DNA of 13,486 nt. Origin: an uncultured Candidatus Marinamargulisbacteria bacterium. Its GTDB lineage: Bacteria > Margulisbacteria > Marinamargulisbacteria > SXXA01 > CAYGHZ01. Shown here in pieces: positions 5,801 to 6,675 of the stretch (the first letter of the stretch is position 1; each line of letters opens with the position of its first letter). A program made the position numbers and the translations under genes. Under the pieces are notes generated by a model. The model searched no databases, was not told where the DNA came from, and worked only from the letters and a program-made list of their open reading frames with translations. The stretch spans positions 1-13,486 of the forward strand of contig CAYGHZ010000043.1 in assembly GCA_964349635.1 (NCBI GenBank). The letters are read 5' to 3'.

Positions 5801-6675
5801 CGACAAACCTCTACTATTTTAATCAGCGGTATTATGACCCTGAAATTGGGCGGTTTTTGACGCCGGATCCTGCGGGACAGGCGCTCAATCCGTATTTGTA
5901 TTGCGGGAATAGTCCGTTGGCTTATATCGATCCGGACGGCAGAACCTTTTTTGAAGCGATGACATTGATGGGGGCCGTGTATGGTGCAATGTTTGGCGGC
6001 GTAGGAAATATGGTGGCGGGCGGACGATTTCAAGATGGTGCCTTCGGCGGAGCAATCACCGGAATTAAGATCGGCGGCATTGCCGGTCTAATTACCGATG
6101 GATTCACAGGCGGGTTTGCCAGTTATAATGGGAATCCCATTTTTCAGATGGCGGCTTGGGCGAATATAGGGGCGTGGTCGGGGCAGTTGGGAACTATGAC
6201 CCGGCTTAACATTCCAAGTGACGCTTCTGCTACTAATACTTCTAAACCGGCAACTAAACCTAATTTGTCACCAGCTTTAAATTTGAATGGTCCCTATAGT
6301 GCTCGGACTTATGCGAATCGGTATGATCATTTGGAGGGGCAATATGCCAGTAATTGGGCTACGGATGCGATCGAGGAAGCCAGGGTGGGTATTAAACATA
6401 CCTGGGCGGCATATAAAAGCGACCCCGTTATTAGACTTTTCGATAATGCGCATGGTTCTATTGGAGATGTATTGAGTAATGCGTCCCTGCAATTTGGCGG
6501 CTATCCCATAATTGGACCGGTGATTGAATCCACTGATGCCGCTTGGAGTGCCTCTTACTTGCCTGCTCAAGCTGCTATTTTGATTGGAATTGAATCTTGG
6601 AATACACTAACACAACCTGCTTATCAAGCACCCTATTTTTATGGTGGTGGAGCAGGACAATCTGGGAGATGGTAA
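2887..6675 (+). CDS. rhs: Rhs family protein carrying the YD-repeat shell, the RHS repeat-associated core and a C-terminal polymorphic toxin domain (CT1). The true start is uncertain. TTG 2887 sits immediately after the in-frame TAG, and no ATG occurs for about 100 codons.
   Basis: There are many YD repeats (YDSFGQV, YDDYGRPT, YDAFGNLLKLTDPRN, YDAYGRVT, YDTEGRLTQ, YDYDSFGRPIKE, YDELGNLQS, YDANGNPIRFE, YDAEGNMTRKQ). The RHS core reads YIYSGNEKIAMA...YYFNQRYYDPEIGRFLTPDPAGQALNPYLYCGNSPLAYIDPDGR, with DPDG at nt 5929..5940. A 245-aa variable tip follows at 5941..6675 with lower GC. The stop is TAA. Confidence 0.85.
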   Translation: MSNLFGHLLSKRTLPLGSVIEYEFTDNLVKGEVRFGYILGLYSWYRNDEHYLPDYSYPLAIKKSVKSDTTTLPQQSYAVNFKYLDLNFYSNVDFSKTMFFFDQVKVDNPEDMEDETFYFSRGRLTSHAKGIIYQIQAWDYDQNRLTKTATYRNGIIQTETEYQSYDSYNNPLRILTRKGTTDFIRQENTYYIDTALNSLHAVKTSKATDIAKGTSRSQTISYNSKGKPEAIYEGESASPETQIKALTYDSFGQVANETSFGPNGNSVQTYTYSQTASRYIATQSLNGKAVEQQFDLNTGQLVQSKDLNGQVTTQAYDDYGRPTVTSYPDNQQKTIQYAIDLKTTTVTAGGRTVSSTLDTFGRTILVDYPEGEEDTKTDYTALGAVSKIYKKQSGNWVQKKSYEYDSKMRMIQSISADFGTTVYAYDDLANTVTVTDPKGRSVKKTANELGQTTDATGVDNTTVHSDYDAFGNLLKLTDPRNLVRQTDYDAYGRVTAAYHPSASGATPVKQNIPMYTNGAITQSQTFGADGQAFHTYAFTYDTEGRLTQTSVGGVAVETLTYDESGHGGSAGRLTTAENKADGVKTRYDYDSFGRPIKETTTLATLSNKTYTIQTQYHPVNGNVSATLFPDGKAISYGYDATQRVNAISYDSKSIAGYSYNPNGTVKQITYGNGFTIQYSYTKEVLLTEILYKDKTGAQQFKQTYSYDELGNLQSTWHSDYGNYSPGGITRKYAYDVKDELTSVAINDAPTYTHSYDANGNPIRFETPNNKGLSGNNITVDFNADKITEKRQIDGSKTQFEYDAEGNMTRKQRFAANGNPEKDIRYSYNYQGQLQESKDSTITTGTYRYNHKRQRVYSDMRMGTSTGDGIKWYYWDAGGRNIGEGHQRYGDYTVRYIYSGNEKIAMARPKDLDNMAAGEEILYFINNAQGTPVMVVNEAGTVESRINMDEWGNLGDNTDKSEVNLTGKKLDPSTNLYYFNQRYYDPEIGRFLTPDPAGQALNPYLYCGNSPLAYIDPDGRTFFEAMTLMGAVYGAMFGGVGNMVAGGRFQDGAFGGAITGIKIGGIAGLITDGFTGGFASYNGNPIFQMAAWANIGAWSGQLGTMTRLNIPSDASATNTSKPATKPNLSPALNLNGPYSARTYANRYDHLEGQYASNWATDAIEEARVGIKHTWAAYKSDPVIRLFDNAHGSIGDVLSNASLQFGGYPIIGPVIESTDAAWSASYLPAQAAILIGIESWNTLTQPAYQAPYFYGGGAGQSGRW
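5179..5940. repeat. Direct repeat, copy A. This is the rhs core-coding region inside the full-length gene.
   Basis: It matches 7281..8042 at a fixed offset of 2102 nt. Three pairs of overlapping six-frame ORF translations are letter-for-letter identical between the copies. This implies about 100% identity over roughly 5179..5870, after which identity decays to the DPDG codon. Confidence 0.9.
5941..6675 (+). other. Rhs C-terminal toxin domain CT1. It has a glycine-zipper-rich segment (about 5944..6200) and then an unrecognised ~150-aa distal domain.
   Basis: The domain starts right after the DPDG core boundary. Its sequence (GAVYGAMFGGVGNMVAGG...GIKIGGIAGLITDGFTGGF...) has GxxxG-like periodicity. 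It diverges completely from the orphan copy downstream of the core. GC drops relative to the rhs body. Confidence 0.6.

Follow-up and report, generated by a model that had tools for sequence, protein, structure and literature searches.

A conserved glycine-zipper module precedes unrelated C-terminal domains on the tips of RHS polymorphic toxins, including one from Candidatus Marinamargulisbacteria

Introduction

Is the glycine-rich stretch at the tip of an RHS polymorphic toxin the toxin itself, or does it serve a separate domain that lies behind it? How such tips enter a neighbouring cell when no type VI secretion system (T6SS) spike carries them is poorly understood, and the question is raised by a 13,486-nucleotide contig of an uncultured Candidatus Marinamargulisbacteria bacterium (CAYGHZ010000043.1, positions 1 to 13,486 of the forward strand, assembly GCA_964349635.1; hereafter the window), the plus strand of which carries a classic RHS polymorphic-toxin locus. 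The variable tip of its RHS protein, CT1, begins directly after a DPDG motif (GAT CCG GAC GGC, ending at 5940) and occupies positions 5941-6672, with a TAA stop codon at 6673-6675. An original prediction, made from the sequence alone, had described CT1 as an unrecognised glycine-zipper toxin tip paired with a polytopic membrane immunity protein, and its coordinates and the three CT1 peptides that it quoted are exact in the sequence and its translation.

Here we find that the CT1 locus follows the established logic of polymorphic toxin loci, where orphan copies of tips and of immunity genes abound. CT1 divides at definable domain boundaries, its N-terminal module is limited to RHS tips, the tails behind that module are unrelated to one another, and the downstream genes track the tails. 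Most probably the glycine zipper is not the toxin itself but a portable module for membrane insertion or delivery.

Results

The N-terminal part of CT1 is a module found only on RHS tips

CT1 comprises three segments on the plus strand: a glycine-zipper module with three predicted helices (CT1 residues 1-88, 5941..6204), a 28-residue low-complexity linker (residues 89-116, 6205..6288) of which 57% is Ser, Thr, Pro or Asn and which contains neither glycine nor aromatic residues, and an orphan distal domain of 128 residues (residues 117-244, 6289..6675 with the TAA), which is the presumed effector or specificity domain. The module is the only part of CT1 that has homologues. Our main homology result comes from running HMMER exhaustively over 1.84 billion representative proteins, and not from a word-indexed search, in which the module profile recovered only two members that were already known. 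The HMMER scan returned CT1 itself and four further proteins, all of them aligned only from CT1 residues 2-3 to residues 86-105 and 42-52% identical to it, and three further copies (L009, from a metagenome-assembled genome (MAG) of Desulfobacteraceae, L010 and L011) came to light when genome and metagenome contigs were scanned with the module alignment. In eight of eight copies the module stands directly after the [DN]PDG motif of an RHS core, and in every one a low-complexity linker rich in Gly, Pro and Ser comes next. Fourteen positions are invariant in the eight-sequence alignment (F3, F4, E5, G37, G41, K43, G46, G49, D53, N65, P66, A78, G81 and G84), giving a conserved FFE, a G-x3-G ladder with K43 and D53, an NP and an AW.G..G motif. 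The eight copies, none of which lies outside an RHS tip, thus make up a small family that had not been catalogued, and the glycine-zipper helical segment that had been proposed directly after DPDG is real and conserved in eight homologous sequences.

Behind the linker, at least five unrelated kinds of tail occur among the eight copies, including M23 and M15-like domains. Two tails are Peptidase_M23 domains (58.1 bits in L009 and 52.4 bits in L011, cut-off 28.7), and that of L010 resembles M15_2 and M15_3 at scores below the cut-off (E 7e-5 and 1.7e-4); the modules fused to these M23 or M15-like hydrolases are 30-44% identical to the CT1 module. Among the remaining relatives, the tails are about 135 residues long in P0002, about 105 in P0005 and about 55 in P0003, and in P0004 only some 20 residues follow the module. 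The M23 tails of L009 and L011 are 47% identical by BLAST (9e-40), while the tails of P0003, P0005 and the window are each unrelated to any other tail, and an all-against-all BLAST comparison found the window's distal domain unrelated to every one of the others.

The genes that follow differ in the same way. The M23 tails are followed by a signal-peptide protein, which in L009 has a lipobox, and these two proteins are themselves 30% identical (BLAST, 9e-26); the M15-like tail of L010 likewise precedes a signal-peptide protein. Downstream of P0002 lies an overlapping gene with a soluble-looking start (the contig ends after 40 codons), downstream of P0005 a soluble protein of 69 residues, and downstream of P0004 a soluble protein of 99 residues and then a single-pass membrane protein at which the contig ends; the 632-nucleotide contig of P0003 has no downstream gene. 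Only the 128-residue orphan tail of the window is followed by an RDD-family polytopic membrane protein, and neither an RDD protein nor any other polytopic membrane protein lies downstream of any of the module relatives. Downstream genes therefore co-vary with the tail and not with the module. This arrangement, one module before unrelated toxin domains with the immunity gene tracking the toxin domain, is the one that defines pre-toxin or entry domains as a functional class, although no curated pre-toxin or entry domain in Pfam or NCBIfam matched CT1 or any module copy besides a weak resemblance to Romo1. It also fails to support the view that the glycine-zipper stretch is the toxin, given that its relatives share that stretch alone and are fused through a linker to unrelated tails that include M23 and M15-like domains.

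On the contig of L011, the segment just upstream of the orphan module-M23 cassette (89-908) holds the end of another tip, which has an Ntox44 domain (59.6 bits), and, behind it, a DUF5412 protein (32.5 bits). The presence of this second tip marks L011 as a multi-cassette polymorphic toxin array.

The module is predicted to form three moderately hydrophobic helices

We then examined the composition of the module. CT1 residues 1-88 are 24% glycine, compared with 8% in the RHS body, 40% Gly, Ala and Ser together and 8% charged, and they contain 8 GxxxG motifs, 4 Gx3Gx3G motifs and 2 four-glycine ladders. In 5,000 composition-preserving shuffles these counts were reached in 4.2%, 2.3% and 3.5% of trials, respectively, so that the glycine periodicity of the module is only modestly above chance, and the looser [GAS]x3[GAS]x3[GAS] pattern in CT1 (5 observed versus 4.5 +/- 2.1 after shuffling) is not above chance. 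Conservation across the family is stronger evidence for a zipper than periodicity.

An AlphaFold2 model of the module built from five aligned sequences (predicted template modelling score 0.65; predicted local distance difference test, pLDDT, about 80-88 over residues 10-60) has helices of 23, 27 and 14 residues (7-29, 34-60 and 70-83, in numbering that includes DPDG). The maximum 19-residue Kyte-Doolittle hydrophobicity (KD19) ranges from 1.2 to 1.7 across the family, a moderate value that suits helices which stay soluble while shielded and insert later. A Foldseek search with the module model gave no match in the PDB at E <= 1e-3. Matches of the Tim17 type were weak and individually non-significant: Romo1 in Pfam (E 0.0075-0.01, cut-off not reached), OEP16-3 (0.038) and NDUA11 (0.18) in a PDB profile search, and a chain of the TIM22 complex in Foldseek (0.6). 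We take them as a compositional and architectural resemblance to membrane-embedded GxxxG helices and not as homology. The Pfam families Gly-zipper_Omp, Gly-zipper_OmpA and Gly-zipper_YMGG did not match the module either, the best score being that of a single member against Gly-zipper_OmpA (E 6.8, 7 bits, cut-off 27).

The distal domain of CT1 has no recognisable relatives

Residues 106-244 of CT1 have no relative in the exhaustive HMMER scan. CT1, including its distal domain, matched nothing in Pfam, NCBIfam, PADLOC, PHROGs or PDB sequences, had no homologue in a word-indexed set of 5.8e9 proteins (an index that is insensitive to such sequences) and gave no match in a tblastn search of plasmids. 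No profile or sequence match linked the distal domain to known nuclease, deaminase, ADP-ribosyltransferase, peptidase or lipase toxin domains, which bears out the earlier statement that this region lacks a recognisable enzymatic toxin domain. The last 74 residues of CT1 are 6.8% charged and rich in Ala, Ser, Gly, Tyr and Trp, and no segment of the distal part has hydrophobicity at transmembrane level (KD19 at most 1.04). A colicin-M-like lipid II hydrolase reading of the string NRYDHLEG, suggested by the ColM motif, was dropped because it had no Pfam match at E <= 1.

In the HMM and structure-prediction searches, which the original prediction had proposed as a check, no profile matched CT1, and modelling returned three predicted helices for the module and an unusable model for the distal domain. 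The word "unrecognised" holds in the sense that no curated family matches CT1 or the module, and it fails in the sense that tip designs of this kind are already known, as set out below.

An RDD-family membrane protein occupies the immunity position

The gene directly downstream (6679..7218, plus strand, GC content 31%) encodes a polytopic membrane protein of 179 residues. It starts 3 nucleotides past the CT1 stop codon, and a GGGAGA Shine-Dalgarno-like motif precedes its start. Three hydrophobic segments of the product reach a KD19 >=1.6 and two more are weaker, consistent with 4-5 transmembrane helices, and the protein matches RDD (PF06271) over residues 2-123 at 26.4 bits (gathering cut-off 24.1). 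The residues that give the family its name are present as R4 at the start of the first transmembrane helix, D11 within that helix and D130 in ...LIYDFLSKTTVI. The product thus shares with Pfam RDD both a score above the gathering threshold and R4, D11 and D130, and it differs from the family by an extra C-terminal transmembrane helix. In the word-indexed search of 5.8e9 proteins it matched only itself.

We presume that this is an immunity protein because of its 3-nucleotide gap from CT1, its position on the same strand and its location inside a unique cassette, and on these positional grounds it is probably the immunity protein of CT1. The RDD domain has been called enigmatic, with a predicted intramembrane binding site (PMC12419801), and RDD as an immunity family was not found in the literature that we searched. 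Hydropathy, the RDD match and the position of the gene in a unique cassette between RHS repeats agree with the earlier description of a 4-5 transmembrane protein encoded 3 nucleotides downstream. The wider claim of a membrane-targeting tip with a membrane immunity protein fared less evenly: the neighbour is indeed a polytopic membrane protein, and yet no module relative has an RDD or polytopic neighbour.

CT1 and the RDD gene form a cassette between RHS-core repeats

The segment that encodes the RHS core is present twice on the plus strand of the window, as repeat family D1: copy 1 at 5178..5940 and copy 2, an orphan RHS core fragment ahead of a second tip, at 7280..8042. Positions 5178-5870 and 7280-7972 are 100% identical over 693 nucleotides. 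Beyond 5870 the identity falls over the next 70 nucleotides and reaches background at 5940/8042, the DPDG boundary (identity per 30 nucleotides is 1.0 up to 5850 and about 0.25-0.27 from 5940). Both the loss of conservation at the DPxG boundary and the orphan core-plus-tip copy downstream are hallmarks of RHS polymorphic toxins; the orphan core scores 75.6 bits against Rhs_assc_core within an open reading frame at 7407-8813. CT1 and the RDD gene thus lie in a unique segment, 5941-7279, between RHS-core repeats, which is the signature of a swappable toxin-immunity cassette, and copy 2 provides the substrate for cassette swapping by recombination. Two further public data sets contain independent assemblies of the identical sequence. 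Promoter and terminator matches in 5900-7450 are no more numerous than in shuffled sequence.

The orphan tip behind copy 2, CT2 (8043..8839, plus strand), has a different Gly-rich N-terminal region of its own and a C-terminal domain of about 70 residues in common with P0002. Its frame is broken by a 1-nucleotide deletion near 8762 (CGG CTG^GAT); after correction CT2 ends in ...FRLDYHKNKGLHYHRHPNMVKHRPGEGF*, with its stop codon at 8837-8839, 3 nucleotides before the ATG of 8843-10066, the same spacing as between CT1 and the RDD gene. The last 70 or so residues form a His-rich domain without a family match, which is 44% identical to the P0002 tail over 73 residues (E 4e-14 and 6e-14). One tail family therefore stands behind two Gly-rich N-terminal regions, and one module family stands before at least five tails, which points to domain shuffling between pre-toxin module and cargo. 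The Gly-rich region of CT2 was also considered as a relative of the CT1-type module, and this was not accepted at an hhalign probability of only 27.7%.

The presumed CT2 immunity gene (8843..10066, plus strand, 407 residues, GC content 37%) is assigned by position; its product has no family match in the profile libraries and no hydrophobic or transmembrane segment. The GC contents of the two putative immunity genes, 31% (6679-7218) and 37% (8843-10066), compare with 48% for the RHS body, and the low value of the RDD gene partly reflects its membrane sequence rich in Phe, Ile and Leu. Downstream of the second putative immunity gene, a third RHS-core remnant (10156-10208, 94% identical to 5273-5325) suggests a former third orphan cassette.

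The RHS gene and its surroundings

The RHS protein is encoded in two consecutive segments of one frame. The first (1795..2886, plus strand, 363 residues) contains a DUF6531 domain (Pfam, 27.7 bits, cut-off 24.1) and the first YD repeat (RHS_repeat, E 3e-4), and its N-terminus, MIKKVILFGLALVAISTFLFVGVVHA, looks by eye like a Sec signal. It ends at an in-frame TAG (2884-2886), the sole interruption between 1795-2886 and the second segment, 2887-6675, which comprises 1,262 residues with strong RHS repeats (RHS_repeat, Pfam, 114.6 bits). The RHS/YD-repeat shell and the RHS-associated core together span 2887..5940 on the plus strand and end in ...YIDPDG; the core (Rhs_assc_core, TIGR03696, 73.5 bits) covers residues 948-1018, nucleotides 5728-5940. 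YD/RHS repeats and an RHS-associated core that ends in a DPxG motif together identify the protein as an RHS polymorphic toxin, and neither PAAR nor VgrG is found in the window.

The in-frame TAG may reflect pseudogenisation, an assembly error or read-through. The RHS gene of locus L003, whose product is 40% identical to the window RHS protein, also has a single in-frame stop, a TAA that lies elsewhere (residue 979, positions 5911-5913 of L003). We considered the TAG as a recoding signal, for example for pyrrolysine, given that one relative comes from a Desulfobacteraceae MAG, and found no support for it: the stop in the L003 RHS gene is a TAA in another place, and TAG is the stop codon of several L003 genes.

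Upstream of the RHS gene, the open reading frame at 29-1798 encodes a repeat protein with GNVGIGTT motifs and a C-terminal coiled coil, with a tandem repeat at 1020-1433, and its product has matches to tail-fibre families of phages in PHROGs (E 7e-18 and 1e-17). L003 has a homologue at 80-1249 (29% identity, E 2.5e-32), two genes before the L003 RHS gene, and because a homologue also stands upstream of an RHS gene there, the pairing of this tail-fibre-like repeat protein with RHS genes may be functional. At the other end of the window, the genes in 10335-13127 look unrelated to the toxin locus. They encode an SPFH/Band 7 protein (128 bits) and two further proteins with signal-like N-termini and no family match; one of the latter, the product of 12273-13127, has the C-terminus ...MVMLNY and is a possible outer-membrane beta-barrel.

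Comparison with known systems

RHS tips composed of membrane-inserting helices and paired with a membrane immunity protein are known from Tse5/Tsi5 (PMC9637101). Functionally, the nearest system to CT1 is indeed Tse5 (RhsP1)/Tsi5 of the Pseudomonas aeruginosa H1-T6SS (PMC9637101; also PMC11630599): in both, an RHS cage encloses a C-terminal fragment that is freed at a DPxG-type autoproteolysis site, the fragment has transmembrane and amphipathic helices and no enzymatic signature, and an integral membrane immunity protein is encoded directly downstream. As judged from the predicted helices, CT1 therefore appears to share with the Tse5 C-terminal toxin (Tse5-CT) its defining pair of features: the released fragment has helices that insert into membranes, and the immunity protein is integral to the membrane. 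Homology did not follow, in that neither phmmer with CT1 nor hmmsearch with the module profile retrieved a Tse5 chain from all PDB chains at E up to 10 (a Tse5-CT chain has perhaps not been deposited), and the Tse5 entry 8cp6 matched the RHS core only. There are further differences. Tse5-CT is a single unit of about 149 residues, whereas CT1 consists of module, linker and a 128-residue orphan domain; Tsi5, with two transmembrane helices, does not belong to the RDD family; PAAR, VgrG and the T6SS deliver Tse5, whereas the RHS protein of the window bears DUF6531 and a Sec-like signal, and the window encodes neither PAAR nor VgrG; and, unlike Tse5-CT, the CT1-type module is common to peptidoglycan hydrolase tips.

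In architecture the closest counterparts are the RHS-derived mosquito salivary proteins SGS1 and SGS4 (PDB 8fjp and 9on3; PMC9935623). An RHS shell, then transmembrane-like helices and then a separate toxin domain is the known design of SGS1 (PMC9935623), in which an RHS/YD shell, an IDPDG aspartyl autoprotease site, Gly/Ala-rich predicted transmembrane helices inside the shell, a linker or cleavage site and Tox-SGS follow one another in the same order as in the window. Alignments to the solved Rhs, Tc and Tse5 cores of the PDB stop at most about 22 residues from query residue 180, the DPDG motif, and SGS1 and SGS4 are the only PDB entries aligned well past it into the helices, with low confidence for SGS1 beyond DPDG. 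The module as a homologue of the SGS1 helices was rejected at an hhalign probability of 0.5%. The SGS1 region has about 230 residues and six predicted transmembrane helices, compared with 88 residues and three helices in the window module, and SGS1 is eukaryotic and lacks an immunity gene.

For a glycine zipper ahead of a toxin domain, Tde1, a T6SS DNase effector of Agrobacterium tumefaciens, offers the relevant precedent, as its N-terminal glycine zipper permeabilises the membrane and is needed for translocation but not for DNase activity (PMC10240207). Compared by its published description, Tde1 resembles the proposed module in having a GxxxG run N-terminal to a separate toxin domain. It differs in that it is not an RHS protein, in that the effector as a whole begins with the zipper, which also binds the adaptor Tap1, and in that its cargo is a cytoplasmic DNase whereas the known cargos of the module are hydrolases that act in the periplasm.

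The C-terminal regions of CdiA (CdiA-CT) in contact-dependent inhibition (CDI) likewise combine an entry domain with a toxin domain, and CDI ionophore toxins pair with very hydrophobic membrane CdiI proteins (PMC11630599). Like CT1, CdiA-CT is a variable tip after a conserved motif (VENN in CdiA, DPDG here), its N-terminal domain is reused with different C-terminal toxins, and its immunity protein is specific for the toxin domain, as we propose for CT1. CdiA differs in that it relies on CdiB/CdiA two-partner secretion and in that its entry domains exploit specific inner-membrane proteins and not glycine zippers. CT1 had no significant match of any kind in Pfam, and hence none to CDI or polymorphic-toxin families.

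Discussion

The reading that we favour, and to which we give roughly an even chance, is that CT1 is a bipartite tip in which a portable membrane-insertion or delivery module precedes an orphan distal domain that acts as the effector, with the RDD protein as immunity protein. CT1 would then be a two-part variable tip on an RHS polymorphic toxin that bears a Sec signal. The RHS cage would shield the module until release after the DPDG autoproteolysis motif, upon which the module would insert into the membrane of the target cell and carry or anchor the domain beyond the linker. CT1 residues 117-244 would set the toxic activity and the specificity of immunity, and the RDD protein would be the cognate immunity protein. 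The distal domain would most likely act at the cytoplasmic membrane, within it or on its periplasmic face, through depolarisation or through attack on a membrane-bound target. Our reason for this placement is that the presumed immunity protein is embedded in the membrane, and the location of that protein is the one observation that makes a membrane target for CT1 plausible. As for the module, its job could be membrane crossing, anchoring of the cargo at the periplasmic face or keeping the cargo unfolded in the cage.

Whether the module could instead be the toxin was the claim with which this study began, and a version of it deserves weight. The module might be a Tse5-like pore-forming or depolarising toxin that the RDD protein neutralises within the membrane, the distal domain being an accessory for receptor binding, oligomerisation or cage packing. 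Three helices of transmembrane length, only 8% charged residues and a conserved GxxxG ladder fit this possibility, as do the polytopic nature of the presumed immunity protein, which recalls Tse5/Tsi5 (PMC9637101) and the CDI ionophores (PMC11630599), the essentially module-only tip P0004 and the ability of the Tde1 glycine zipper alone to permeabilise membranes (PMC10240207). We nevertheless consider it unlikely, though the strongest of the competing accounts. The zipper is not the toxic principle in our view because a self-sufficient pore former would need a membrane immunity protein wherever it is found, and the loci with related modules fused to complete M23 or M15-like hydrolases have as their sole neighbours secreted or lipoprotein-type partners that co-vary with the hydrolase; no other module copy is accompanied by a membrane immunity gene. 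The maximum KD19 of just 1.2-1.7 across the family and the lack of a sequence match between the module and PDB chains or Pfam Gly-zipper families also speak against a pore.

The same presumed membrane location of immunity is compatible with a design in which the whole of CT1 is membrane-active as a single unit: the helices of the module would form a lesion together with the last 74 residues, which carry few charges, and the RDD protein would recognise the assembled form. This would account for a last segment with so few charged residues and so much Ala, Ser, Gly, Tyr and Trp, and for a distal domain without an enzymatic signature, but the 28-residue Ser/Thr/Pro/Asn linker parts the two halves just as in the enzyme-bearing relatives, no distal segment reaches transmembrane-level hydrophobicity, and the co-conservation of the halves that such a unit implies has no homologues to rest on; we regard it as improbable. 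Still a little less credit goes to the view that the cassette is a decaying or silent remnant and that the RDD gene possibly encodes an unrelated membrane protein and not an immunity protein. The in-frame TAG at 2884-2886, the frameshift in the adjoining orphan CT2, the lack of relatives for both the distal domain and the RDD protein and the lack of documented RDD immunity proteins in the literature searched would all suit decay. Against it stand intact open reading frames for CT1 and the RDD protein with the same 3-nucleotide spacing as corrected CT2 and its downstream gene, the Shine-Dalgarno-like GGGAGA before the RDD start, the independent assembly of the identical sequence in two other data sets and the placement of the RDD gene exactly within the swappable unit.

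Several points weigh against the bipartite reading itself. Assigning toxicity to the distal domain is a purely positional inference, with no homologue and no usable model to draw on (the AlphaFold2 single-sequence model of the whole of CT1 has a pLDDT of 34.5, and that of the distal domain, about 30, is uninformative). Polytopic membrane immunity is typical of pore formers such as those countered by Tsi5 and CdiI-EC93, and the module is the only clearly membrane-like part of CT1. P0004, in which the module is followed by about 20 residues, means either that the module suffices as a toxin or that this copy is a decayed orphan. Peptidoglycan hydrolase cargos need only reach the periplasm, which leaves it ambiguous which membrane is to be crossed. 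The sample consists of eight module copies, most of them on contigs of 0.6-2 kb, so that immunity genes could sit off-contig, and the interrupted RHS frame means that the locus is possibly not fully functional.

A bolder extension of the bipartite tip would make the module a self-contained translocation device of Sec-exported, non-T6SS RHS toxins and, separately, would make RDD proteins intramembrane immunity proteins; we hold this to be speculative and rather unlikely as it stands. After release from the cage the three helices would insert and carry diverse folded or unfolded cargo across without an injection machine, the cargos being the M23 and M15-type hydrolases, the CT2-type domain and the orphan domain of the window.

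Within the bounds set by a tiny module family and by two singletons, the distal domain and the RDD protein, two leads emerge. The minor one is the RDD protein itself: the RDD domain is widespread and its function is not established, and a member in the immunity position offers a handle on what the domain binds. The other, of moderate weight, is a pre-toxin module of glycine-zipper type that Sec-type RHS toxins can reuse. With only 88 residues it lends itself to synthesis and domain swaps, and its recurrence after the cleavage site with varied cargo makes it a candidate for the step by which the tips of spike-less RHS toxins enter their targets.

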